From: Prochloraceae cyanobacterium
Lineage (GTDB): Bacteria > Cyanobacteriota > Cyanobacteriia > Cyanobacteriales > JASJDA01
Length of the DNA: 64,000 bases
Direction: 5' to 3'
NCBI GenBank assembly: GCA_030065755.1
Contig: JASJDA010000002.1
Coordinates: 27,122-91,121, forward strand
A model generated the notes under the pieces. The model was given only the letters and a program-made list of their open reading frames with translations. It was not told where the DNA came from and ran no database searches. How positions within the stretch are numbered: the stretch's first letter is position 1; each line of letters opens with the position of its first letter. Shown one piece after another: positions 3,085 to 64,000 of the stretch. A program made the position numbers and the translations under genes.

Positions 3085-4260
3085 TTAACGCTTCTTAAGA
3101 CGTAAAGAAACATGAATAATATTTTTCAAGGAAGCAGAAATATCTGAATGTTCCCCTTCAGATATTACCTTAAAAATAGACAAAGACCCAGGATAGAAAA
3201 TGGGGCATACTTGGTCTGTAAACAGACAGGAAAAAATTGCTAGTTCTTCAAGTAAATATTTACGGCACATTTCTCCATAAAAATTGAAGGAATTGTTCTG
3301 CTCATTTAGGTGAATGTGGCGATTGACAAACTCCCTAGAAAATGATTGAATTGATTTGGCAAATCTTTCATTTTTGGCAAACAAATCTTGTAATTGTTCG
3401 TAGTAATTTTCATATTCTTTCAATTGTTTGACTTCAGAGCAATAGACAAACTGAAAATTACAGGCATCGGCATGGCATCGAAAGACAGTCATTTCAGTAT
3501 TGATATACTCTTTACCCATTAAAATTGCCTGAGTTAGTGCTTGTTTTTCGTTTAGTCCCCGATCGATTTGCAGAGTAATCCGATGTAAGCTATCCCCCAC
3601 CAGGACGATACACTTTTGAAAACGATTCGCTATCCAATCCGCGATCGCCACTAATTTGGCAGTTGAAAAGTTAGGATTTTGCAAACTGATTCCCAAGAAA
3701 CAACTATTGTAATTTTCTAGATGCTGTCGAGCATTTGAGGGAGAAACCTTGTCGATCAATACTCGATATCTTGACTTTGTGGGGATTGTTCTTTTCTCAT
3801 TAACCTTTAATAATCTCCGAAAATCGGCCCACTCCATTGTTAATAAATTTCTATAAGAATCCAGATATAACTTTATCTCTCGATTGTCTTCCAAATCCCT
3901 GGCTAATAGGACATCTACACCATAAATCTCTCCCATCGGCAGAATTGTACCTAATTCACAATCGGGAAAGAATTTCTCAACTTCTGATGAGTCAAGCAAT
4001 CTAACTTGTCGTGTCCCTAAATCTTGTCGTAGGGACTCAATATCGATGGTTAGACTAGCAGGCAAAACAGCCATCACTATTTGAGAATTGTCAATTTCTA
4101 GAAATACCGCTTCTACTAACTCCATCCCTAACATATTTTTATAGTTTTCCAACTCTTGGAGAGTATGGGCAGGTGAATAGCTAGTAACTATGTATTTCAC
4201 CTTATGGCTGTCTAGAAGTTCTTGAAGTCTTGGCATTTGCATAGGACAGAAAAGAAGCAC
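3085..4260 (-). CDS. YbaK/ProX-type tRNA-editing domain fused to a cyclodipeptide synthase (CDPS)
   Basis: ORF track, 391 aa. N-terminal ~150 aa carry a tRNA_edit-like signature (VMAVLPASLTIDIESLRQDLG ... FFPDCELGTILPMGEIYGVDVLL). C-terminal ~225 aa carry CDPS landmarks: CFLGISLQNPNFS (cf. AlbC LIGISAGNSYFS), RKYLLEELAIF (cf. AlbC NYVLAEAPLF), PIFYPGS (cf. AlbC LCYHID). The true start may be Met7/Met9 (~4242/4236). Confidence 0.8.
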   Translation of the reverse strand: MLLFCPMQMPRLQELLDSHKVKYIVTSYSPAHTLQELENYKNMLGMELVEAVFLEIDNSQIVMAVLPASLTIDIESLRQDLGTRQVRLLDSSEVEKFFPDCELGTILPMGEIYGVDVLLARDLEDNREIKLYLDSYRNLLTMEWADFRRLLKVNEKRTIPTKSRYRVLIDKVSPSNARQHLENYNSCFLGISLQNPNFSTAKLVAIADWIANRFQKCIVLVGDSLHRITLQIDRGLNEKQALTQAILMGKEYINTEMTVFRCHADACNFQFVYCSEVKQLKEYENYYEQLQDLFAKNERFAKSIQSFSREFVNRHIHLNEQNNSFNFYGEMCRKYLLEELAIFSCLFTDQVCPIFYPGSLSIFKVISEGEHSDISASLKNIIHVSLRLKKR

Positions 4261-26311: not shown

Positions 26312-26872
26312 TCTGGGTAAATTAGACCAGAGGTCTCGTAATCGGCAGATTGGGAGGTTACATGGAGTTAAACTCGTCCCACGTCATTTATTTCTGGGAT
26401 TTCGCCTCGATCGCTACGCGCACCACGGCGTGTTCTTGATTGTCTATTGTTTATGGATACTAACACTAAATTCAGTTAGTCTAAACCAAAGTTACCAATT
26501 TATTGGATGACAAACTAAAATAACTTGGTGGTTAGAAGGAGCAAAAAAAGAATACTATTTTGGGAAAAGCTCAAAGCTAAATATGGCTTAAAAACTCAGT
26601 AAACCAAGATTTAAAGCAGTTATTAAAAGAAGTTTGAGAGATTTTAAAGTTTAGATTTAGTCAGTGAAAAACTTATGAAAGATAATTACTTGAAGTCTGT
26701 CAAGGGAAAGATAGGTCAAGATAAAACATACGAGCCAATATCATATTTAATAAACAAAGTTTAATTAGTAAGGAATTTTTTGAGTGGGGAAAACTAAAAA
26801 AAGGTTTAAAAAAATAGGAAATATGCTGTATATTATAAAATAAATTTATCCAAGGGTTAACTAAGGGATTCG

Positions 26873-49299: not shown

Positions 49300-50692
49300 C
49301 TGCCCCATCACAAAGGGGAATTTCGCGCCTCCAATTATAGGTTTACAAAATAAACTAATTCCGCTAAAATAACAACTATCTAGCGGAATATTTGAATGCT
49401 TTTGACTCAAACGGTTCGATTGAAACTGAATAGTACCGAAAAAGATATTTTGACTAATTTGTGTCATTTGTCCAAAAATTTGTTCAATGTGGGACTCTAC
49501 ACTGTGCGTCAATACTTCTTTGCCGAGGGAAAATATCTCAGTTATGAGTCTAATTATCATCTGTGCAAAGAGAACAAAAACTATCAACTCTTGGCTACAG
49601 ATTGCGGGCAACAAACGCTTAAATACGTAGACAGGTGTTTTAAAGCATTTTTTAAGTTGCTCTCGATGAAGAAAGAAGGAATATATCACGAAAAGATTAA
49701 TCTTCCGAGATACTTGCCTAAAGATGGACACTTTCCTTTGATTATTCCCATCAGAGCCAGGCATAATTTTGCTAAAGATAACTGGAAGTTTAAAATTCCC
49801 ACATCTCGTCAATTCACGAGAGAAAACGGTTCTGTCTACATAAGCGTACCTCCGAATTTGAGGGAGTATCGAATTAAGGAAATCCGAATATTGCCCAAAC
49901 AAAGAGGTAAGTTTTTGGATGTTGCATTTGTTTATGAGTCTATTGACGAACAAGTAAGTGTTAGCAATGATGATGCAATATCAATAGATCTCGGACTTAA
50001 TAACCTTGCTACCGTAGTTAGCTCTACCTCGGAATCTTTTATCATTGATGGATGTTGGCTTAAGTCTAAAAACCAATGGTTTAACAAGCGTCGATCTCAA
50101 CTGGTCTCCCACAAAGACAAACAAGGTATTAAACACTTGACTAAGCAAGAAGCTTGGTTGTCTTACCGTCGAAAAAACCAAGTAAGTAATTACTTGAATA
50201 AAGCTGCTAGATACATAATTAACTTTTGCCTCAATAGAAAGATTGGGACGATTGTTGTGGGTTACAACCCGACTCTTAAACAAGAGACTAATATGGGCAA
50301 ACGTAACAATCAAAACTTTGTTCAAATTCCAATCTTTACCATTCGCTCCAAGCTGAAAAGCCTCTGTGAGCGATATGGGTTCAACTATGTAGAGCAAGAG
50401 GAGTCTTATACTTCCAAAGCTTCGAGTGTTGACCGCGATGATATTCCTCTATACAACGCCGATAACCCCGTTAAGCCCACTTTTTCTGGCAGACGAATAA
50501 AACGCGGGTTGTATAAAACTAAGACTGGTCATTTGATTAATGCTGATTGCAATGGAAGTTTAAACATTGGTCTTAAAAGTAAGCACGAAGCTTTTAGCCG
50601 AGTGTCTAGGGTCTGTTTGACGCAGCCAGTGAGGGTTAATGTCCTCCGAGAATCTAAGACCATAGCACCAGCTTGGTCTTAGAGTACGTCAA
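49300..50692 (+). mobile_element. IS200/IS605-family tnpB-only element (left boundary uncertain)
   Basis: Left-end hairpin aattccgcta...tagcggaat at ~49357-49389 just before the tnpB ATG. Right-end hairpin taagacc...ggtctta then gagtacgtcaa ending ~50692. No tnpA. Confidence 0.6.
49396..50682 (+). CDS. tnpB: TnpB-like protein lacking the usual zinc-finger cysteines
   Basis: 428 aa. ISIDLGLNNLATV (RuvC-I), VVGYNPTLKQE (RuvC-II), INADCNGSLNIGLK (RuvC-III). The segment YTSKASSVDRDD...SGRRIKRGLYKTKTGHLINAD has no CxxC pairs. Confidence 0.8.
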   Translation: MLLTQTVRLKLNSTEKDILTNLCHLSKNLFNVGLYTVRQYFFAEGKYLSYESNYHLCKENKNYQLLATDCGQQTLKYVDRCFKAFFKLLSMKKEGIYHEKINLPRYLPKDGHFPLIIPIRARHNFAKDNWKFKIPTSRQFTRENGSVYISVPPNLREYRIKEIRILPKQRGKFLDVAFVYESIDEQVSVSNDDAISIDLGLNNLATVVSSTSESFIIDGCWLKSKNQWFNKRRSQLVSHKDKQGIKHLTKQEAWLSYRRKNQVSNYLNKAARYIINFCLNRKIGTIVVGYNPTLKQETNMGKRNNQNFVQIPIFTIRSKLKSLCERYGFNYVEQEESYTSKASSVDRDDIPLYNADNPVKPTFSGRRIKRGLYKTKTGHLINADCNGSLNIGLKSKHEAFSRVSRVCLTQPVRVNVLRESKTIAPAWS

Positions 50693-50747
50693 CTTTGCTT
50701 AAAATAGAAAAGAATTGGTCTCGAATTCTCTAGTTGAAAGCGAAACT

Positions 50748-51299
50748 ATGATAAGACTTAAAATAAACGGTCAGTTGCAAACGCTGAATGTCGAGCCACG
50801 AGTGACTTTGTTAGATGCCCTACGAGAAAACCTGGGATTAACTGGAAGCAAGAAAGGTTGCGATCGCGGGCAATGCGGAGCTTGTACTGTACTGATCGAC
50901 GGGCAAAGAGTATATTCTTGCCTCACTTTAGCGATAATGCAAGAAGGTAAAGAAATTACGACGATCGAAGGTTTAGCAACTGGGGATAATTTGCATCCAG
51001 TGCAAGCAGCTTTTATTGATAATGATGGCTTTCAATGTGGTTATTGTACTCCAGGTCAAATATGCGCTTCGGTTGCCTTATTAGATGAAGTTAAAAACGG
51101 TTCTGTTAGTTACGTTACCCCAGATCTAACTAGCGCGCCTCAATTAGCTTCTCTATCAGAGGCGGAAATAAAAGAGAGACTGAGCGGCAATTTGTGTCGT
51201 TGCAGTGCATATAACGGTATCGTCGCCGCAGTGCAGCAAGCTAGCGGACAAAACCCTCCTTCGCCTGCTGCTTCTAATCTTGGAACAGAGGTAAGTTAA
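50748..51299 (+). CDS. xanthine dehydrogenase-family (2Fe-2S)-binding small subunit
   Basis: CDRGQCGACTVLIDG, CGYCTPGQI, CRCSAY. I prefer the ATG at 50748 (MIRLKINGQ) over the TTG at 50715 in the ORF track. Confidence 0.85.
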   Translation: MIRLKINGQLQTLNVEPRVTLLDALRENLGLTGSKKGCDRGQCGACTVLIDGQRVYSCLTLAIMQEGKEITTIEGLATGDNLHPVQAAFIDNDGFQCGYCTPGQICASVALLDEVKNGSVSYVTPDLTSAPQLASLSEAEIKERLSGNLCRCSAYNGIVAAVQQASGQNPPSPAASNLGTEVS

Positions 51300-52294
51300 T
51301 GAACAATTTTGCTTACGTTCGTGCCAATTCGGTTGAAGATGCCGTAAGTAGGGCTAGCCAAGATAGCAACGTCATGTATATCGCAGGGGGAACCAATCTA
51401 GTCGATCGCATGAAAGGCTTTTTAGACGAGCCATCCCAACTTGTTGACGTATCTCGTTTGGCGATGAAAAAAATCGAACGAACTCAAGAAGGAGGCTTAA
51501 AAATTGGCGCGTTAGTAACAAATACAGACCTAGCAGGTTGTGCCGAAGTGCGAAGCAATTATCCCATGCTCAGCAGATCGATTTTAGCTGGAGCTTCCCA
51601 ACAAATACGCAATATGGCAACAGTAGGGGGAAATTTGATGCAGCGCACCCGTTGTCCCTATTATTACGATACTGCTTTTGCTTGCAACAAACGCCAGCCA
51701 AATACTGGTTGTCCTGCGGCAACTGGAATTAATCGCACTCACGCTATATTAGGAGCTAGTGAAAGCTGCGTGGCTGTTAATCCCTCGGATATGTGCGTCG
51801 CCTTGGCTGCATTGGATGCCGAGGTTAAAGTTCGAGGAGTGGCAGGAGAGCGCCAAATTCCTTTTGTAGACTTCCATCGTCTGCCAGGGAATACTCCCAA
51901 TCGCGATACAAATTTAGAACCTGGAGAATTGATTACAGCAGTAATTTTGCCTCCAGTATCTTTTGCGAAATCGGGAGTTTATCTCAAACTGCGAGATCGA
52001 GCTTCCTATGCCTTTGCTTTAATATCAGTAGCTGCGGCTTTAGAACTATCGGGAGAACAAATTAAAAACGCTCGAGTGGCATTGGGTGGAGTAGCTCACA
52101 AACCTTGGCGCGCCACTGAAGCCGAAGAGTTTTTAAAGGGCAAGAGGGCTGATAAATCTACCTTTTCACAAGCAGCAGAAATTGCACTTAAAGATGCCAA
52201 ACCCCTCGCTCATAACCAATTCAAAGTAAAACTGTCTAAACGGGCAATTTCTCGCGCTCTAAGCGTTTCAGCTCGAGGAGGAGGTGTAGTATGA
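51299..52294 (+). CDS. xanthine dehydrogenase-family FAD-binding subunit
   Basis: YIAGGTNLVDRMK, ATVGGNLMQRTRC. 331 aa. Start overlaps the small-subunit stop codon. Confidence 0.85.
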   Translation: MNNFAYVRANSVEDAVSRASQDSNVMYIAGGTNLVDRMKGFLDEPSQLVDVSRLAMKKIERTQEGGLKIGALVTNTDLAGCAEVRSNYPMLSRSILAGASQQIRNMATVGGNLMQRTRCPYYYDTAFACNKRQPNTGCPAATGINRTHAILGASESCVAVNPSDMCVALAALDAEVKVRGVAGERQIPFVDFHRLPGNTPNRDTNLEPGELITAVILPPVSFAKSGVYLKLRDRASYAFALISVAAALELSGEQIKNARVALGGVAHKPWRATEAEEFLKGKRADKSTFSQAAEIALKDAKPLAHNQFKVKLSKRAISRALSVSARGGGVV

Positions 52295-54413
52295 ATCAGA
52301 TTATCGGTACTTCAGTTAGTCGTAAAGACGGACGAGCTAAAGTTACGGGAGAAGCAACTTACGGAGCAGAACATCAAGTTGAGGAACTGGTTCACGGGTA
52401 TTTAGTAACTGCAACGATCGCCAACGGCATTATTAGCAACATCGATACCAGCTCCGCAGAGCGAGCGCCTGGTGTAATTAAAGTTTTTACTCATAAAAAC
52501 CCGCCAGAAGTCTTTAAACCCCGTAATGACTTCATAAATTCCAAAATTTACGAAGCGCGGCTGCCTTTATCGGACGATCGCGTCCATTATGCAGGACAAA
52601 TTGTTGGCTTAGTGGTGGCAGATACTTTTGAAAGAGCGCGGGATGCAGCAGCACAAGTCAAAATTGAATACGAAACTCAACCCCCACAAATTGACCCCAA
52701 AAAAGCGAGTTATAAAAAAGCTCCTAGTTTTCTTGGAGAAGATTTAGAGTATCAAGAAGGGACGTTCGAGACAGGGGATTTTTCAGGATCGAATACTGCG
52801 GCAACGGTAGAAGCAACCTACACTACCGAAGTAGAACTTCACGCGCCTATGGAACCCCACGCTCTGGTTGCTAATTGGGAAAATAAAGATTCGGTAACGG
52901 TTTACGAACCGACTCAGTGGGTGAGAGGGTCTCAGAGCACTTATGCCGATTTGTTCGGTCTTCCTCTCGATCGGGTTCGCATCATAAGTCCTTATATTGG
53001 CGGCGGATTTGGGTCAAAAGCATTTCCTTGGCCTCACGGCGTTCTTTGCGTCGCTGCCGAAGAGAAATTCAACGTCCTCTCAAAGTGGTTCTCTCCCGTC
53101 GTCAAATGACAGCCAATAGCGGACATCGATCGCAAACCGAACAAACTATCCGTTTAGCAGCCAAAGCCGATGGTAAATTAGAGGCGATCGAACATACAGC
53201 CAAATCTTGCACTTCTGCAGTTGAAGTTTTTCCCGAACCCTGTACTGGCATCACTTCTATCATGTACGCTGCCCCTAATATGAGACTAAAACAAGAGCTA
53301 GGAGTCCTCAACGTCGGTACGCCTACTTTTATGCGAGCACCAGGGGAAAATCCAGGGCTGTTTGCTCTCGAGTCAGCTATGGATGAGTTAGCCTGGGAAT
53401 TGAAGATAGATCCTGTAGAACTGCGTTTGAAAAATGAAACAAAGGAACATCAGCGCAGAAAACTGCCATTCTCAGAGAAATATTTTGCTGAGTGTTTAAA
53501 AATAGGAGCAGAAAAGTTTGGCTGGAGTCAGCGCCAAATGCAACCGCGCTCCGTCCAGCAAGGAGATCTTTTAGTTGGTTGGGGAATGGCAGGATCCAGC
53601 TTTCCGGCTTTACGCGGCAGAGCTGAAGCTAAAGTCCGCCTGCTTCCCGATGAAACCGCTCGTGTTTTAACATCAGCCAACGACATGGGAACGGGAGCTT
53701 ATACCGTAATAGCAATGACTGCGGCTGAAACTCTAGGTTTGCCCGTTGAAAAAGTCAAAGTAGAATTAGGCGATTCGATTTTGCCAAATGGCGGCATGGC
53801 TGGCGGTTCTCAAATGACTGCGTCTCTTACTCCTGCAGTTTTAGCTGCTTGTCAGAAGGTTCTTCAAACAGCGAACGCTCAAAATGCTAAGGAAGCTTTT
53901 ACCAACCTACACGCTTCAGGACTAGACGCATATGAAGCTAGTGCTACTTCTGCTCCAGGTCAAGAAGGCAAAAACTTTGCTTTTAACTCTTGGGGAGCGC
54001 ATTTCTGTGAAGTGACTGTGGATGAGGAAATTGCTCGCTTGCGGTTAACTCGTTGGCTTTCGGTGATGAATGTCGGACGAGTCCTCAGCGCCAAAACGGC
54101 AGCTTCTCAGATTCGCGGGGGTGTAATTATGGGCATCGGACAGGCTTTAATGGAAGAATGTAATTTCGATCCAGCTAGCGCCTATCCTGTAGTTTACGAT
54201 TTAGCAACCTATCACTTCCCTGCACACGCTGATATTCCTCGCATTGAAGTCGCTTTTGTCGGCGAGCCAGACCTCAATTTTAATCCGATGGGTGCCCGTG
54301 GAGTTGGCGAAATCGGGATTACAGGGGTATCGGCAGCGATCGCTAACGCCGTCTATCATGCTACTGGCAAGCGCATCCGCAGTTTACCAATTACTCCAGA
54401 TAAATTAATTTAA
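52291..54413 (+). pseudogene. xanthine dehydrogenase-family molybdopterin-binding large subunit, split by a -1 frame change
   Basis: Two overlapping ORFs (52291..53109 and 52917..54413, frame offset -1) together give one colinear large subunit. Homology switches frame at the A-run ~53065-53067 (..VLCVAAEE | IQRPLKVVLSRRQM..). Confidence 0.8.
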
Positions 54414-54596: not shown

Positions 54597-55784
54597 TTGA
54601 TAAGGAAAAAAGCGATCGTGCATGAATTAGAAGCAATAGTTTTGGCAAATGAAGACAGTATTAAAAAGGGTGAAACTACTTACCTCGCTACTATAGTTAA
54701 TACTTTTGGTTCTACTTACCGCCAACAAGGTGCCAAAATGTTAATTACAGAAAAAGGGGAAATGGTAGGAACTCTGAGCGGTGGTTGCGTAGAAAATGAT
54801 ATTTTTCAATATACTAAACAAATAGAGAACGAACCTCTTTTAATCCATTACGATGCCACAAAAGAAGAAGAAGATTTTACTTGGGGCTTTGGATTGGGTT
54901 GTAATGGGGCAATTAAAATATTACTAGAAAAACTCGAAATATCCAATTCCTTATCTCCTTTGAATTTAATCGCTCAATGTCTAAAAATTCGAAAAATAGG
55001 CGCGATCGCTACTATTTTTAATCTAGAAGGGTCGAGGGATTTAAAAATTGGCTCTCGTTTTATTCTTTATCCCGACGATACCTCTTACACCAATATTGAA
55101 AATCTAGCTTTAAAAGAAGCGATCGAAAATGACACTATTACTGCTAAAAATACTCAACTCTCAACCGTCAATAAATACCAACTATCATCGGGTAGCGTAA
55201 CAGTCTTTATTGAAGTTATTAAACCTCCCACTTCCTTAATTATTTTTGGTGCGGGTCGAGATGCTTTACCTGTAGTAGAAATAGCTAAAACAATAGGCTG
55301 GCAAGTGAGTGTCATTGATTGTCGAGCGCAAGAAGAAACTTATCGAAGATTTGCTCGAGCAGATAAAATTACTCTCACTTGTCGCTCCACGATCGGCCAA
55401 CAAATCTCAGTAGATAAAAATACTGTTGCGGTGGTTATGACTCACAATTATTTCGACGATCGAGATATTATTAAATTTCTCCTGCCGACTTCAATTCCCT
55501 ATTTAGGTGTGATGGGTTCAAAAAATCGAATCGATAAGATAATACAGGAGCTAAATCATCCTAAAATTCAATTAGAAAAGTTGTACAGTCCGATCGGTTT
55601 AGATATTGGAGCTGAAACTCCAACCGAAATCGCTAGCGCAATCGTTGCTGAGATTCAAGCCGTCTTAACTAAACGTAATGCAGGCTTTTTAAAATATCGT
55701 TCTCAACCTCTTCATGAAAGATACAGTGTTCGAGAAAAGCAGGTTAAAACTAGAGACAAGGTTTTGACATTTGAACAAAAGTAA
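54597..55784 (+). CDS. XdhC/CoxI-family molybdenum-cofactor insertion accessory protein
   Basis: LATIVNTFGSTYRQQGAKMLI...GTLSGGCVEND and Rossmann-like LIIFGAGRDALPV. The start codon is uncertain (TTG 54597 or GTG ~54618). Confidence 0.8.
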   Translation: MIRKKAIVHELEAIVLANEDSIKKGETTYLATIVNTFGSTYRQQGAKMLITEKGEMVGTLSGGCVENDIFQYTKQIENEPLLIHYDATKEEEDFTWGFGLGCNGAIKILLEKLEISNSLSPLNLIAQCLKIRKIGAIATIFNLEGSRDLKIGSRFILYPDDTSYTNIENLALKEAIENDTITAKNTQLSTVNKYQLSSGSVTVFIEVIKPPTSLIIFGAGRDALPVVEIAKTIGWQVSVIDCRAQEETYRRFARADKITLTCRSTIGQQISVDKNTVAVVMTHNYFDDRDIIKFLLPTSIPYLGVMGSKNRIDKIIQELNHPKIQLEKLYSPIGLDIGAETPTEIASAIVAEIQAVLTKRNAGFLKYRSQPLHERYSVREKQVKTRDKVLTFEQK

Positions 55785-59192: not shown

Positions 59193-60089
59193 ATGCAGAT
59201 GTCTGATGAGAAGATTTCTATCGCCGTGGCTGGTCATACGAATTCTGGTAAGACTACTTTAATTAGAAGTTTGATGAAGAGTAATGTCGGAACAATAGGA
59301 GACAGAGCGAATGTAACAAAGTTCTCAGAAGAAAACTGTCATGATGGTCTGCAGGCTACTTTCATCGACTGCCCTGGATTTACAAAAGCGAGTGATTTAT
59401 TGAAGTATATCAAGCTTAAAAAAGAGAAACCTGACCTCTTATCCCAAATTGCATCTGTCTTTAATCCCGATAAATTTGTATATGACGAACGCGCAATTAA
59501 TGCTATCAAAAATAGTGATGTGGTATTTTATCTTGCTAATCTTGAGACTATACCAGAAGACGATCATGATGAAGAAATTGAGCTTATTAGATCCGTTCAT
59601 AATAAGATAATCGGGATTGGAAATAAGAGTCGAAAAAGAGGAAAAAAGGAAGTCGATGAGAAACTTTCGGGGCGGATACACCAGTGGGAAAGCTTTTTTA
59701 GAAAAAATGAAATTCTGAATTTTATTATGTTTGATACCTTCTGGGACAATCCCTCTAAGATTATCTCCATCTACGGTTTTGTTAAGGAATTACTGAGTGA
59801 CAATGAGAGGAAAGCCTATGTGTTTGACCAAGGTCTAAAACGGTATTATGAGAGACAAATTGCTATCTTTAAGGAGTCATCTGATTTATTGGCTGAGTGT
59901 GTTATAAAATGTCGGGAAATTAAAAAATCTGCGGATGAGAGTAAGAAAAGCAGAACCTCCCTGCAGGAGGAGGCTAAAAAAGAATTAGAATCTACTTTCA
60001 AAAATTTTGTTAAAGACATTGAAAAGGGAGCATCCCATTTTGGCAACTATAAAGAAAAAGCAAAAAGTAGTTGCGGGGATACCGCGTAG
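59193..60089 (+). CDS. P-loop GTPase-like protein, 3' end replaced by IS terminal repeat
   Basis: AVAGHTNSGKTTLIRSL (G1), FIDCPGF (G3). From ~60026 the reading frame runs into the IS inverted repeat (..GASHFGNYKEKAKSSCGDTA stop). Confidence 0.65.
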   Translation: MQMSDEKISIAVAGHTNSGKTTLIRSLMKSNVGTIGDRANVTKFSEENCHDGLQATFIDCPGFTKASDLLKYIKLKKEKPDLLSQIASVFNPDKFVYDERAINAIKNSDVVFYLANLETIPEDDHDEEIELIRSVHNKIIGIGNKSRKRGKKEVDEKLSGRIHQWESFFRKNEILNFIMFDTFWDNPSKIISIYGFVKELLSDNERKAYVFDQGLKRYYERQIAIFKESSDLLAECVIKCREIKKSADESKKSRTSLQEEAKKELESTFKNFVKDIEKGASHFGNYKEKAKSSCGDTA

Positions 60090-60228
60090 TGGTATCCCCG
60101 CCCCCTCTCCTACTAAACCGTTTAGTTTGAAAACCAAGGGACTCACCGACAGCAGCAACTGTTTTTGAAGGCACGTGGCGAGCGAGAGGATTGAGCAAGT
60201 ACTATAAAAAGGTACAACTAAAAAGAAT

Positions 60229-61409
60229 TTGATTGTGACCCCATCAGAAAAACTTGAACTTGAAGCTTGCCTAAAAAGAGTTGGAGAAATTCTTTATAAT
60301 AATAGTGATACAGACCGTATAGAAAATCTAGAAGATATCGAAACTACTGTCAGAGAAAAACTTTTAGAACACGTTAGTCCCCAAATAACCTTTTTTTTAT
60401 CGAAAAAAAGACAGGAACTAGAAGAGGAAAAAAAAGAACAATAAAAAGCTGTTTAGGAAAACTTAGAATTACTAAAAAACAAGCAGATAAATTGGGACTA
60501 GACCCTTATACTCGTTATAGTCCTCTATTAGAAAAATGCTCTTTTCTTTTAAGTGCTAATGAATCGTATCACAATGTAGAAAAAGACTTTTCAGTCTTAA
60601 CAGGAATAAAAATCAGTCATTCAACTTGCCAAAGAAAAGTTGTCAAAAAAAAGTGGGAATTACCTGATGTCAAACAAAAAGTTTCTGAGGTAACGAATAA
60701 TTCATTTTTATTAAGGAACCCTTTTACGATAACTCTTCTGCTTCGTTGATAACTTAACTACTATAGAAGGGTTCCTTAATAAAAATAATTTTCTTCCGTA
60801 AGTGTTGATGGTGGAAATATCAGGTTAAGAAGCAAGAAAAAAGGGGAGAAAAGTTTTTGGAAACAATATAAAACAGCTCGTTTACAAGGCATTTATTATG
60901 GGGCTTTTTATCAAGATAATTTATCTTTAACTGATTGGATTAATAGTCAAAAATTAACAAAACCCTTATATTGCTTGGGAGATGGACATGATGGTATATG
61001 GAATATTATAGCAGAAATCGGAGATAAAAAACATCGGATTGAAATTCTTGACTGGTATCATTTAATGGAAAACTTACATAAAATTGAGACAAAAAATTAT
61101 CATATTCTTCAATTAAAAGCATATCTTTGGTTTGGTCAAGTTGAAGAAACTATTAATTATTTGAATAAGCTAAAACCAATAGGTGGCAGTAACTTTTGTA
61201 TCTATCTCAGAAAACATCAAACAAAAATTATTAATTATCACTATTTTCAATGGCAAAAAATTTCTTCAATAGGTAGCGGTGCTGTTGAAACAGCAGTAAA
61301 ACAAATAAGCCATAGAGTTAAATTGCCTGGTGCGCAGTGGAAAGAAGAAAATGTCCCCCAGATTTTACAACTTCGTTCTAGCTATTTAAACGGTAAATTT
61401 GCTATTTAA
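60229..61409 (+). pseudogene. ISKra4-like transposase, interrupted (frame change at A7 run ~60403-60409 and 90-bp MITE insertion)
   Basis: Three ORF-track fragments (60229..60444, 60492..60749, 60975..61409). Manual joining gives a continuous ..FFLSKK|KTGTRRGKKRTIKSCLGKLRITKKQADKLGLDPYTRY.. and ..KVSEVTNN[MITE]FSSVSVDGGNIRLRSKKKGEKSFWKQYKTARLQG..GDGHDGIWNII..ILDWYHLMENLHK. Confidence 0.7.
60701..60790. mobile_element. ~85-bp MITE (TIR tttttattaaggaaccc) inserted in the transposase gene
   Basis: Inverted ends tttttattaaggaaccctt / aagggttccttaataaaaa. Flanked by ataatt on both sides. Insertion plus duplication is 90 bp, so the downstream frame is preserved. Confidence 0.7.
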
Positions 61410-61794
61410 AACCTTGAAATTTGACTACTAAATAATTTAATTTAGTTCTTTAATTATAATAGTTTTCATTTCTCGGTCGCGAAGCGCTGCGAGCCTCGCA
61501 GTTCGGAGTTTTAATTTATCGCTCGCGGTTTCCATTTATCGCTCGCCGCCGTCAAAAACAGTTATTGCTGTGCCTCCGCAGTGCGTGTCGGCACAGCCCC
61601 CCTGAGTTAAAACTAAACGGTTTAGTCGTAGAGGGGCGGGGATACCGCTACGCGGCATCCCCGCAACTACTTTTTCTTTATAGTTTCCAAAATGGGATGT
61701 TCCCGATTTAAAGCCATTTTTAAGTCGTTATCACCTTGAGCGGCCTGTCTATATCCCAAAAATTTAACTAGATCGGTGTTACGATTTGGCTCTG

Positions 61795-62245
61795 GCGAGA
61801 GATGTTTTTATTTTTATTAAGGAACCCCTTTTACGATAACTTACTTGCGAGAGATGTAGTTATTTTTAATAAGGAAGTCCTTTTACGATAACTTACTTGC
61901 GAGAGATGTAGTTATTTTTAATAAGGAAGTCCTTTTACGATAACTTTCTTGCTTCGTTTATAACTTGACTACTATGAGGACTTCCTTATTAAAAATGAAC
62001 TCATTGCAGTGCGATCGTTTATAACTTAATTGCTGATGAGGACGAGAGGTGTTTTTATTTTTATTAGGGAAGTCCTTTACGATAACTTAAATACTTCGTT
62101 TATAGGTTAACTGCAATATGAGGACTTCCCTAATAAAAATGAACTTTTTGTCGGACGTTCCTTATTAAAAATGAACTTTTTGTCGGACGTTCCCTAATAA
62201 AAATGAACTTTTTGTCGGACCTTCCGCGCTTAAAAATAATATTTT
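61795..62245. repeat. cluster of nested and partial copies of the same MITE family
   Basis: Three consecutive left halves (gcgagagatgt..tttttaataaggaagtccttttacgataactt), two complete copies, then three consecutive right halves (ttcc[ct]ta[at]taaaaatgaactttttgtcggac). Confidence 0.7.
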
Positions 62246-62377
62246 CGTGATTCGGTTGGCACCCGAAGATAACCGCACTCAAACAGTTACAGTAATAGCA
62301 CCAGTATTGGAAAAAATAGCCCCATGGCTGGGTGTAGCTGTAACTCATTTCTTGCCATAACAATAGATTATAAGCGA

Positions 62378-62704
62378 GCGCTTATCTCAGAAGGCAAGGG
62401 ATGCAATCGAAGTACGAAGTATTTGGACTAAACAGTATAGTTTTAAAAAAGGCGATCGCTCGGAATAACATAGTGAAACTTTTTCACGCGTGTTCGACAA
62501 CGTGAATGCGCACCGCTACGCGGTTCCCAAAGGGATCGAGCGATAAAGCTGAAAGTAGCGAAGCAAGACAGTATGGTTGGGATTGTGACTGGCGATCTGG
62601 CAAGCCAGATCCGCTCTTCGGCGCGCTTATTGGGGTAGGCAAGGGATGCAATGGAAGTACGGAATATTCATACTGAACAGTATAGTTTAAAAAGGGGCGA
62701 GCGG
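62378..62704. repeat. pair of ~85-bp direct repeats flanking a ~160-bp spacer
   Basis: 62378-62462 and 62623-62704 share gcgcttat..aggcaagggatgcaat[cg]gaagtacg[ag]a[ag]tatt..act[ag]aacagtatagttt(t)aaaaa. Confidence 0.65.
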
Positions 62705-63135
62705 AAAAAATCAGTATGACTACTGTTGTTGAACATTAGCTATAAAGATCTTCTTGATTTATACGGAAATTCTAATAAGTCGATTTTATTCACACCAGTT
62801 TTATACCTTGAACTTAGTATCTGTTCTCCTTAAACCAGTCAGGCGGCTGGTTATTTTTGTTGCGAAGAACTTCACAATAAGCCAGACCGCCCATTTCCTC
62901 GGCTTCTAATGTAGCTATTACCAACATTGCGAGTCTACTGACCTTAAGCAATATTTAGGTTGAAAAACTGAGGTATTGAGACTATCGTTGATGATGAAAA
63001 TAATAGCTATTGACCAAGCAGTTAAGGCAAATGTTTGATATAAGAGAGTGATGTAATTTGACTGAAAATTCCTCAAGGATTGGCCAAATTTTAGCTGGGT
63101 TTTAGAAGCATTAGTAGACATCTGATTATTTTTTT

Positions 63136-63252
63136 GACGAGAGATGTTTTTATTTTTATACAGGGAACCCTTTTTCTTGTAGTTATGTCCCTTCGCTATT
63201 AAGTTATCGGTATAGAAGGGTTCCCTGTATAAAAATGAACTTTTTGTTTGAC
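63136..63252. mobile_element. MITE family member with different core
   Basis: gacgagagatgtttttatttttatacagggaaccc ... gggttccctgtataaaaatgaactttttgtttgac. Same termini as the 61795-62245 copies. Confidence 0.65.
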
Positions 63253-63598
63253 TTGGCAGTAGATCTTCGAGCGGCTTGATTCTTTCTTATAATTAAACTT
63301 CTCTGAGATTTTGTCAGTAAGAAAAAGTATGAAAAAGTAGGGAGAAATCTAATCAAATACTTAAAATTGATTGATAAGCGCTGGCTAAGTTTTTTTTGCC
63401 TGTAGGAATGCTATCTCAGTAAAAAAAACTGTACTGTTTAGTTTAAAGCTGAAGAACGTGCGTGAAACTTTTTCTGTCAGTTAAACCTCGAGATTCTCTA
63501 GAAAAAAGACTTATTATCAAGCCAATTAACTTAATAATAAGTTTTGTATACTAAACTATAGTTTTTAACTGAGATTCAAGGATATAGGATAACGTAAC

Positions 63599-64000
63599 TT
63601 GAAACCTTTAACCGCAGCCCAAAAAGAACTCTACGATTATTTAGTAGCGCACATCGACAAGTTTCAATATTCTCCGACAATCAGGGAAATGATGCGGGCA
63701 ATGCATCTTAGCTCCCCAGCTCCCATTCAAGCGCGCTTAGGACGTCTGCGAAGCAAAGGTTATATTGATTGGGAAGAGGGTCAAGCGCGAACATTTAAGA
63801 TTATTCCAATGACTCAAAAAGGATTACCAGTCTGCGGAGCGCACCGCTACGCGGATCTCTTTCGAGATCGCTGCAGGGGGTTTGGTAGAACCTTTCACTT
63901 CAGTAAACTCTTTCTTAGATTTACCTAGCTTATTGAATAAGCCAGATTTTTTCGTCCTAAGAGTGAATGATGAAAGTATGAAAGGAGATTTTATTGCAGT
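63599..64000 (+). pseudogene. lexA: LexA repressor gene with +1 frame disruption (3' end beyond window)
   Basis: The N-terminal winged helix MKPLTAAQKELYDYLVAHIDKFQYSPTIREMMRAMHLSSPAPIQARLGRLRSKGYIDWEEGQARTFKI matches cyanobacterial LexA. After GLPV the ORF-track frame turns to nonsense, while the +1 frame from ~63864 reads EIAAGGLVEPFTSVNSFLDLPSLLNKPDFFVLRVNDESMKGDFIA (LexA cleavage-site and S24 peptidase region). Confidence 0.8.

Follow-up and report, generated by a model that had tools for sequence, protein, structure and literature searches.

The lexA reading frame of a Prochloraceae cyanobacterium is probably shifted by a 25-nt small dispersed repeat that targets HIP1

Why does the reading frame of lexA break just before the autocleavage site in a Prochloraceae cyanobacterium? 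The gene lies at the end of the stretch of DNA analysed here, a window of 64,000 nt (contig JASJDA010000002.1 of assembly GCA_030065755.1, positions 27,122 to 91,121) from a metagenome-assembled genome (MAG). An earlier note, made from the sequence alone, had proposed that either a tiny dispersed repeat or the footprint of a transposition splits the gene between the region encoding the DNA-binding domain and the Ala-Gly cleavage site. The analysis bears out the repeat, with three one-frame orthologues that lack the extra nucleotides and a family of more than 20 copies at the same type of target. We put a probability of roughly 0.78 on the reading that lexA carries a 25-nt copy of a small dispersed repeat (SDR) that targets Highly Iterated Palindrome 1 (HIP1) and shifts the frame.

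An open reading frame (ORF) that starts with TTG extends from 63599 to 63928 on the forward strand, encodes 109 amino acids, and ends with a TAA at 63926-63928. The N-terminal domain of LexA can be read through ...QKGLPVCGA, after which the original frame continues as HRYADLFRDRCRG... / HRYADLFRDRCRGFG... up to the stop, while the +1 frame from 63864 to the end of the window gives EIAAGGLVEPFT...VNDESMKGDFIA (EIAAGGLVEPFTSVNSFLDLPSLLNKPDFFVLRVNDESMKGDFIA). The features of the locus are as follows.

63599-63841, forward strand: 5' part of lexA, from the TTG start to codon Ala81 (GCG), with the winged-helix DNA-binding domain inside; 94% amino acid identity to the orthologue P0001 after in-silico excision of the insert.
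63839-63841, forward strand: left half of the split HIP1 site, GCG, the final 3 nt of the 5' part.
63842-63866, forward strand: the 25-nt insert CACCGCTACGCGGATCTCTTTCGAG, seen as a 25-nt gap in the orthologous contigs L010, L011, and L012; 46.2 bits and E 1e-11 for 63839-63871 with the covariance model R1, and a predicted two-hairpin fold.
63842-63854, forward strand: left module of the insert, the mini-hairpin CCGC-TAC-GCGG.
63855-63866, forward strand: right module of the insert, ATCTC-TTTC-GAG, with pairing that runs on into the flanking ATC.
63867-64000, forward strand: 3' part of lexA in the +1 frame (Ile82-Ala-Ala84/Gly85...), and the first residues of the S24 peptidase domain (VNDESM); this part continues past the end of the window and matches L010 at 133 of 134 nt.
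63867-63871, forward strand: right half of the split HIP1 site, ATCGC, the first 5 nt of the 3' part.
63842-63928, forward strand: out-of-frame tail of 28 codons, HRYADLFRDRCRGFGRTFHFSKLFLRFT, and the premature stop TAA (63926-63928), in the original lexA frame and identical to the database protein P0004.

The N-terminal domain is intact, as the earlier note had held, with the Pfam family LexA_DNA_bind (PF01726) matching residues 1-65 of the 109-aa product (E 9.6e-24), which covers the winged-helix DNA-binding domain. The Ala-Gly site and the S24 domain do not share its frame, since AAGG and VNDESM are both read in +1. The whole 109-aa product is identical to P0004, which is annotated as 'MAG: hypothetical protein QNJ54_00805'. 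No terminator-like site was found near lexA.

A protein search identified three close orthologues, P0001, P0002, and P0003 (94, 92, and 86% amino acid identity), each an intact LexA of 204 residues with both Pfam domains, and a DNA alignment with the orthologue contigs L010, L011, and L012 placed a single gap of exactly 25 nt in all three. This length agrees with the roughly 25 extra nucleotides (3n+1) estimated before. Where the orthologues read GGA GCG ATC GCT GCA GG (Gly80-Ala81-Ile82-Ala83-Ala84-Gly85), the window reads GGA GCG CACCGCTACGCGGATCTCTTTCGAG ATC GCT GCA GG, with the insertion point between the codons for Ala81 and Ile82; the Ala84-Gly85 cleavage bond follows three residues further on. 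Because one G is common to both sides, the boundaries are 63842-63866 or 63841-63865, and the junction is GCG/ATCGC or GC/GATCGC. The size and frame of the insert given in the earlier note therefore stand and its limits move: the orthologues carry GGA GCG at the same place, so the native sequence includes TGC GGA GCG (Cys-Gly-Ala), and GAG, taken as 'E' before, is part of the insert. In-silico removal of 63842-63866 yields a frame that is 94.4% identical to P0001 over 125 amino acids.

No additional residues occur at this position in any of the 120 other LexA homologues. An in-frame linker specific to the lineage, the alternative that the earlier note had itself raised, is thereby ruled out. 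An intron or intein was likewise ruled out, the insert being too small and missing from the orthologues, as was transcriptional slippage, the T run being merely 3 nt long. A scan of contigs from GTDB-representative genomes returned LexA matches of at most 62% identity. The 134 nt that follow the insert match the intact orthologue in L010 at 133 positions, and because this downstream part of lexA is undecayed, the insertion event is likely to be recent. In a separate observation, the similarity of the window to its relatives is mosaic: upstream of the HIP1 site it is closer to L011 (228/243) than to L010 (221/243), and downstream it matches L010 at 133/134 and L011 at 121/134. This pattern points to a breakpoint near the HIP1 site, produced by recombination or by a chimera of strains in one of the assemblies.

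The site that received the insert is HIP1, the most abundant octamer of cyanobacterial genomes, whose function has been debated for 30 years. The empty site reads GCGATCGC in L011 and is a 7/8 variant in L010 (GCGATCAC) and L012 (TCGATCGC), and a more distant Prochloraceae MAG (L001, 62% LexA identity) has GCGATCGC at the same Ala-Ile-Ala codons. HIP1 is thus spelled by the Ala-Ile-Ala codons of the LexA hinge (GCG ATC GCT), and the insert occupies GCG/ATCGC of the octamer without duplication of the target. The arrangement GCG-insert-ATCGC holds for lexA and for nearly all copies of the family described below, with a 1-nt ambiguity that also allows GC/GATCGC. The window contains 29 HIP1 sites where base composition predicts 0.4, and the other split-HIP1 sites in it (GCG-N15-40-ATCGC) revealed no further repeat family. 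Ala-Ile-Ala can be encoded as GCG ATC GCN, and HIP1 is spelled by GCG ATC GCC and GCG ATC GCT, which makes hot spots for insertion out of conserved protein motifs like the LexA hinge. In Nostoc, the repeat SDR5 is reported, as summarised in citing papers, to insert between nucleotides 3 and 4 of HIP1 (Elhai et al, 2008, via PMC4390886 and PMC5861425). One of these papers is quoted to the effect that no SDR-like repeat occurs outside Nostocaceae (PMC5861425), and in its description of SDR5 a 2026 preprint speaks of a 21-nt sequence in 'a few heterocystous cyanobacteria' (bioRxiv 10.64898/2026.06.24.733823).

Does the insert in lexA have relatives? The 16-mer GCGCACCGCTACGCGG occurs exactly twice in the window, at 62508 and 63839, against 0 expected from 100 shuffles, so that the recurrence near 62508 seen earlier is exact. 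This recurrence marks one further copy in the window, and a covariance model, R1, built from eleven 24-nt copies, reveals another.

62511-62534, forward strand: second copy, intergenic, of 24 nt (CACCGCTACGCGG + TTCCCAAAGGG), with GCG (62508-62510) on one side and ATCGA (62535-62539) on the other; R1 45.1 bits, E 2.4e-11.
62597-62623, reverse strand: third and diverged copy, 27 nt, CGCCGAAGAGCGG + ATCTGGCTTGCCAG; R1 21.5 bits, E 8e-4.

The diverged copy, which the earlier note had overlooked, is flanked on the reverse strand by perfect HIP1 halves (GCG at 62624-62626 and ATCGC at 62592-62596). Apart from it, R1 recognises 24 full copies at 33-55 bits in the window, in JAAU* metagenome contigs, and in plasmids of Gloeothece and Synechocystis, and the flanks of all of these copies read GCG or CCG on one side and ATCGC, ATCGA, ATCAC, or ATCCC on the other. 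The family is therefore a dispersed repeat of 24-27 nt, with three copies in 64 kb and more than 20 over several genomes. A metagenome scan with the 16-mer gave mostly chance matches in GC-rich soil contigs; among the matches listed, seven low-GC loci hold eight copies, all with the family structure at GCG...ATCGC-like sites. Copies beyond the window include the following.

Metagenome, low-GC loci: L058, L068, L114 (two copies), L119, L123, and L128, all in JAAUX/JAAUY assemblies from the same project as L010.
Gloeothece citriformis PCC 7424 plasmid: copies of 24, 26, 26, and 27 nt within 40 kb (plasmid BLAST).
Gloeothece verrucosa PCC 7822 plasmid: two 26-nt copies (plasmid BLAST).
Synechocystis PCC 6714, 6803, 7338, 7339, and B12 plasmids: mostly 24-nt copies (plasmid BLAST).

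A scan of viral contigs gave nothing convincing, a literature search for the motif strings returned nothing cyanobacterial, and Rfam had no match above gathering scores within 59-64 kb of the window. The motif GATCGCTACGCGCACC at 26409-26424, which the earlier note had listed as a permuted version at about 26412-26424, is not recognised by the covariance model and is probably a chance resemblance. In L128 (JAAUYH010249016.1) the same element and flanks occur on both strands at mirrored positions, 369-400 and 3425-3456, which points to a perfect inverted duplication of the contig, probably an assembly artefact. In L047 (Ga0209628_10297964, 43% GC), five tandem GCGCACC heptamers precede the 16-mer.

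The family has one architecture, CA-CCGC-nnn-GCGG followed by [A/T]TC-y(2-4)-loop(2-4)-r(2-4)-G, in which the second stem extends into the ATC of the target itself. Between the MAG and Gloeothece the 13-nt left module does not differ, and Synechocystis departs from it in the loop alone (GTA, GAA, GCA, AAA). As second stem, CTC/GAG, CCC/GGG, CTGC/GCAG, and CTGGC/GCCAG are found, the last two in longer copies, with many different loops. In the alignment of 24-nt copies 98% of stem cells are paired, compared with 25-50% when the partners are slid, and one stem pair changes in a compensating manner from U-A to C-G in 3 of the 11 sequences. The stems are thus conserved or compensating, and the loops vary freely. 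When the copy in lexA is folded as single-stranded DNA, both hairpins are predicted, with the two HIP1 halves closing them (-10 kcal/mol, z -2.2).

Copies of the family are also found inside other genes. Copies of 24 nt lie in frame within long ORFs that match MobA_MobL (relaxase), BPL_LplA_LipB (BirA-like ligase), PEP-utilizers_C (at the end), and a Gate-domain membrane protein, and each of them falls outside the matched Pfam domain segments. In Synechocystis PCC 6714 a copy is contained in the annotated, intact Cas4/Cas1 gene, in which a span of 570 nt corresponds to 546 nt in six orthologues, and the 8-aa gap of these orthologues coincides with the 24-nt element. A different outcome is seen on plasmid Cy782202 of G. 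verrucosa PCC 7822, where a 26-nt copy (about 445,035-445,060; L141 1503-1528) lies between CYAN7822_RS39920 (annotated as 'hypothetical protein') and CYAN7822_RS32320 ('J domain-containing protein'). In-silico excision of this copy fuses both coding sequences into one J-domain ORF of 229 amino acids, so that this finished genome contains an unannotated split gene. Orthologous sites with and without the element, as expected of mobile DNA, are therefore seen in lexA, cas4/cas1, and the J-domain gene. Copies whose length is a multiple of three persist in genes as 8-aa peptide insertions and the others split genes; the copy in lexA belongs to the second class because its length is 3n+1.

What product would the interrupted gene yield? 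Because the copy is 3n+1 long, translation gives 81 native residues (the intact DNA-binding domain and the hinge to Ala81), 28 missense residues, and a stop. Read in this way, the 109-aa product has neither the scissile bond nor the S24 domain with its dimerisation surface and Ser/Lys dyad. The isolated N-terminal domain of E. coli LexA binds operators weakly. LexA function would thus be lost or cut down to that of a weak, monomeric binder that cannot be cleaved, and the expected phenotype is a loss or strong weakening of LexA control together with insensitivity to cleavage. The stand-alone, non-cleavable DNA-binding domain or absence of LexA predicted in the earlier note is a reasonable expectation. 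Remnants of lexA were also observed in a related population (ENA ERZ23487931; L145 2907-3236 and L146 87-530). In L146 the 5' part of the gene is replaced and the HIP1 site is empty, in L145 only the last 250 nt are retained, fused to a pentapeptide-repeat-like leader, and each of the two has lost the conserved C-terminus through a single additional base near the 3' end. In this clade lexA is damaged repeatedly, and for the organism studied here the insertion points to a recent loss of this global regulator.

How far can the frameshift be trusted? In the 23 ORFs of at least 330 amino acids, which cover 35.8 kb of the window, there are 229 homopolymers of at least 5 nt, 54 of at least 6 nt, and 10 of at least 7 nt, and none of them breaks a frame, so indel errors are rare in this contig. 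The right module of the copy in lexA appears nowhere else in the window, and because it differs from that of the neighbouring copy, the lexA copy does not represent a local mis-join. The independent damage to lexA in L145 and L146 counts in the same direction, and we consider a genuine frameshift probable. Several points weigh against our reading. The difference between 25 and 24 nt comes from a single consensus of a MAG contig, the extra base falls within a TTT run, a 24-nt version would be in frame, and this copy is the sole 25-nt member seen. The 99% identity of the downstream 134 nt to an intact orthologue fits a recent event but fits equally a gene that still functions, and a protein-database search with the C-terminal half of LexA gave no ORF from this MAG, the rest of the gene lying beyond the window. 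No mobilising enzyme was identified, and there was no Y1 transposase among the window ORFs scanned. Finally, the distinction from SDR5 depends on the 21-nt length cited for that repeat and on a search of 50 kb of the Nostoc punctiforme plasmid pNPUN01, which contained no R1 match and no obvious SDR5-like split-HIP1 family.

If one T of CTCTTTC were a consensus error, the element would still be in lexA but would measure 24 nt, and the cell would make full-length LexA with the eight residues HRYADLFE inserted between Ala81 and Ile82, beside the cleavage site, and this protein might still work. Twenty-four nucleotides is the modal length of the family and is tolerated in frame by several genes, deletion of one T opens the frame ...GAHRYADLFEIAAGG..., the lexA sequence after the insert is undecayed, and the sequence comes from a MAG. 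Such an error is nevertheless unlikely, given the unbroken frames at the 229 homopolymers described above, the 26- and 27-nt copies and the gene split by a 26-nt copy in finished genomes, the natural range of 25-27 nt, and the 4-nt loop shared with one Gloeothece copy. The same full-length product would arise from a genuine insert by a +1 ribosomal shift at CUC-UUU-C (63857-63863), where UUU-C lets tRNA-Phe re-pair on UUC and where the +1 frame has no stop from 63813 to the end of the window. No Shine-Dalgarno-like stimulator and no rare-codon or stop context like those of known +1 sites was seen there, however, and the site exists only through the random loop sequence of a repeat whose copy in lexA is unique (0/120 homologues with extra residues), so a rescue of this kind seems very improbable.

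An assembly artefact or a chimera of strains, with no real lexA allele carrying the insert, would agree with the MAG origin and with a 5' half of lexA that is closer to L011 and a 3' half nearly identical to L010, which makes either the contig or L010 a mosaic at this point. But lexA is contiguous on both flanks, the insert has the canonical structure and target of the family with a right module that is absent elsewhere in the window and so was not copied from a neighbouring repeat, and assemblers do not produce 25-nt insertions at an exact HIP1 placement; we give this explanation very little weight. The 25 nt could also be the excision footprint of a larger transposon, such as the ISKra4-type insertion sequence (IS) described below, which shares the 12-mer ACCGCTACGCGG with the insert in both of its terminal repeats; copies of the family also adjoin IS ends in L128 and in the IS630 copies of Gloeothece. 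In contrast to excision scars, the 13-nt module and hairpin occur with constant architecture at many HIP1 sites in several genera, target duplication is absent, and a related ISKra4 copy in G. verrucosa, where the ends of the element are not conserved, does not have the motif at its ends. A footprint is thus hardly credible, and this half of the original proposal is not needed, since an excision scar would not turn up in other genera with an unchanged 13-nt left module. The preferred reading remains a HIP1-directed copy of the repeat that shifts the lexA frame.

The IS element whose terminal repeats contain the 12-mer lies upstream of lexA.

60012-61718, forward strand: degenerate ISKra4-family IS, identified by tblastn to annotated ISKra4 transposases, with terminal inverted repeats of about 120 nt.

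Its transposase is broken into at least three ORFs (60229-60444, 60492-60749, 60975-61409), the element interrupts a GTPase-like gene (59193-60089, MMR_HSR1) at its 3' end, and an internal 28-nt hairpin pair at 60699-60791 recurs at 61808-61827. The 12-mer occurs four times in the window with at most one mismatch, compared with 0.06 expected. It is present exactly in the right terminal repeat (61644-61655) and with one mismatch on the reverse strand of the left one (60082-60093), in both cases where the motif core had been reported, and lies at the tip of a GGGGAT...ATCCCC hairpin. Its sharing with the ISKra4 terminal repeats is not random. A flank in L128, AAGGGAGCATCCCATTTT, equals the outer end of this IS (60024-60043).

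The intergenic region upstream of lexA (61780-63250) is dense in small repeats, with tandem 52-nt units at 61779-61952, tandem 32-nt units at 62116-62245, and AT-rich hairpins (TTTATTTTTATTAGGGAAGTCCT/AGGACTTCC...). An 81-nt direct repeat (62378-62458 and 62623-62703) brackets both intergenic copies of the family. The near-palindromic motif ACTnnACnGTaTAGTTT at 63544-63568, which precedes the start of lexA by about 35 nt (TATACTAAACTATAGTTTTT), is conserved in all three orthologous loci and recurs three times further upstream (62427-62446, 62672-62691, 63428-63447); it could be an operator, perhaps a LexA box, or another repeat family. Elsewhere in the window, a xanthine dehydrogenase/aldehyde oxidase operon consists of an Fer2 subunit (50715-51299), an FAD subunit (51299-52294), a large molybdopterin subunit (52291-54413, forward strand), and XdhC (54597-55784). 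The large subunit is split into two overlapping ORFs with a shift near 53055-53066, the MoCoBD_1 profile being matched at 12-123 in the first and at 115-243 in the other. At a place that reads ...AAAARQLQRP... in homologues, the window shows VAA + GA + AGA GAA, apparently through a 1-nt deletion with no small repeat involved, and the closest homologues of this gene have at most 81% identity. Directly upstream of the operon is an intact TnpB of 428 amino acids (OrfB_IS605 and Cas12f1-like TNB; 49396-50682, forward strand) with no adjacent TnpA.

How might so small an element move? The proposal made here builds on the fixed target, the lack of target duplication, the filled and empty orthologous sites, the conserved stems and free loops, and the occurrence in several genera. 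The element would be non-autonomous DNA that is copied in trans and recognised by a protein as a hairpin. We tentatively prefer a single-stranded 'peel and paste' route through an enzyme of the HUH/Y1 type that recognises hairpins in single strands together with a short target, like those of IS200/IS605 or RAYT, though we hold it doubtful. Patch repair, templated from another copy, at a cut in the GATC core of HIP1 would be a second and rather unlikely route; of the two junctions that are possible, one is GC^GATCGC. On Synechocystis plasmids (L135 2501-2530 and L140), copies lie near genes for 'Rpn family recombination-promoting nuclease/putative transposase', one of them 50 nt from a copy in pSYSM of PCC 6803, and several Rpn genes are neighbours in pSyn7338-2. 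This proximity may hint at the enzyme that mobilises the family or may be coincidental on plasmids rich in IS elements.

HIP1-targeting repeats therefore occur beyond Nostoc-type cyanobacteria and can enter and break protein-coding genes. Lengths that are not multiples of three create cryptic pseudogenes that annotation pipelines label 'hypothetical protein', and 24-nt copies add eight residues. It is conceivable, if somewhat short of an even chance, that the family is undescribed and represents the smallest site-specific mobile DNA known, two mini-hairpins in 24-27 nt that use HIP1 as integration site and have spread through unicellular cyanobacteria including tractable Synechocystis, with 3n copies becoming 8-residue protein inserts and other copies knocking out genes such as lexA. 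If true, this would offer a direct experimental handle on an enzyme acting at HIP1. Recent papers, as far as their statements on SDRs go, still treat HIP1-directed mini-insertions as confined to Nostoc (PMC5861425; bioRxiv 10.64898/2026.06.24.733823). The same behaviour in distant unicellular lineages, including the model Synechocystis, makes a HIP1-trap experiment and phylogenetic profiling for the enzyme feasible.

Several known systems resemble the family in part. Rickettsia palindromic elements (RPEs), which Ogata and colleagues are said to have described in 2000, reportedly lie in frame in protein genes and measure about 100-150 bp. Like the family described here, they are palindromic repeats in ORFs that add a tolerated peptide segment, but they differ in size, have no fixed target like HIP1, and belong to a different phylum. 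Cyanobacterial MITEs (miniature transposable elements with inverted repeats) such as Nezha are likewise non-autonomous and structured, with filled and empty sites between relatives. MITEs are 100-400 bp long and have terminal inverted repeats that match an IS as well as target-site duplications. The present family does not belong to the MITEs: terminal inverted repeats are absent, there is no duplication beyond the 1-nt ambiguity, and, at 24-27 nt, it falls below the lower size of about 50 bp. IS200/IS605 elements insert 3' of a short sequence and have subterminal hairpins that are recognised as single-stranded DNA. They and their miniature derivatives (PATEs) share with the family insertion at a short specific sequence without target duplication, and hairpins, and the copies examined here do show target-specific insertion without duplication and hairpin ends. 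PATEs, however, are about 100 nt or longer and keep the IS ends, whereas the copies of 24-27 nt have no linked TnpA(Y1), and the TnpB in the window has no demonstrable connection with them.

REPs and REPINs, mobilised by RAYT (TnpA-REP, an HUH Y1 enzyme), are also short, hairpin-forming, non-autonomous dispersed repeats with conserved stems and free loops. REPs are extragenic, usually single palindromes of 20-40 nt or doublets, and cluster around a RAYT gene. In the family here, by contrast, the two mini-hairpins are unequal, the octamer target is fixed, copies are found inside genes, and the window shows no RAYT; its position inside genes, fixed target, and missing link to RAYT separate it from classical REPs. 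The closest likeness is to SDR4-6, and to SDR5 in particular, of N. punctiforme and relatives, which, as far as they are described in the sources cited above, are also very small (21-27 nt), modular, and presumed mobile, insert between nucleotides 3 and 4 of HIP1, and have no known enzyme. The reported SDR5 is 21 nt long and found in a few heterocystous cyanobacteria, whereas the present copies are 24-27 nt long and are not restricted to Nostocaceae, their hosts being the Prochloraceae MAG, Gloeothece PCC 7424 and PCC 7822, and Synechocystis PCC 6714, 6803, 7338, 7339, and B12. Unlike SDR5 as reported, they are seen inside coding genes, both in frame and gene-breaking. The element thus works like SDR5, being tiny, HIP1-directed, and modular, but by the length cited for that repeat it is not SDR5 itself.

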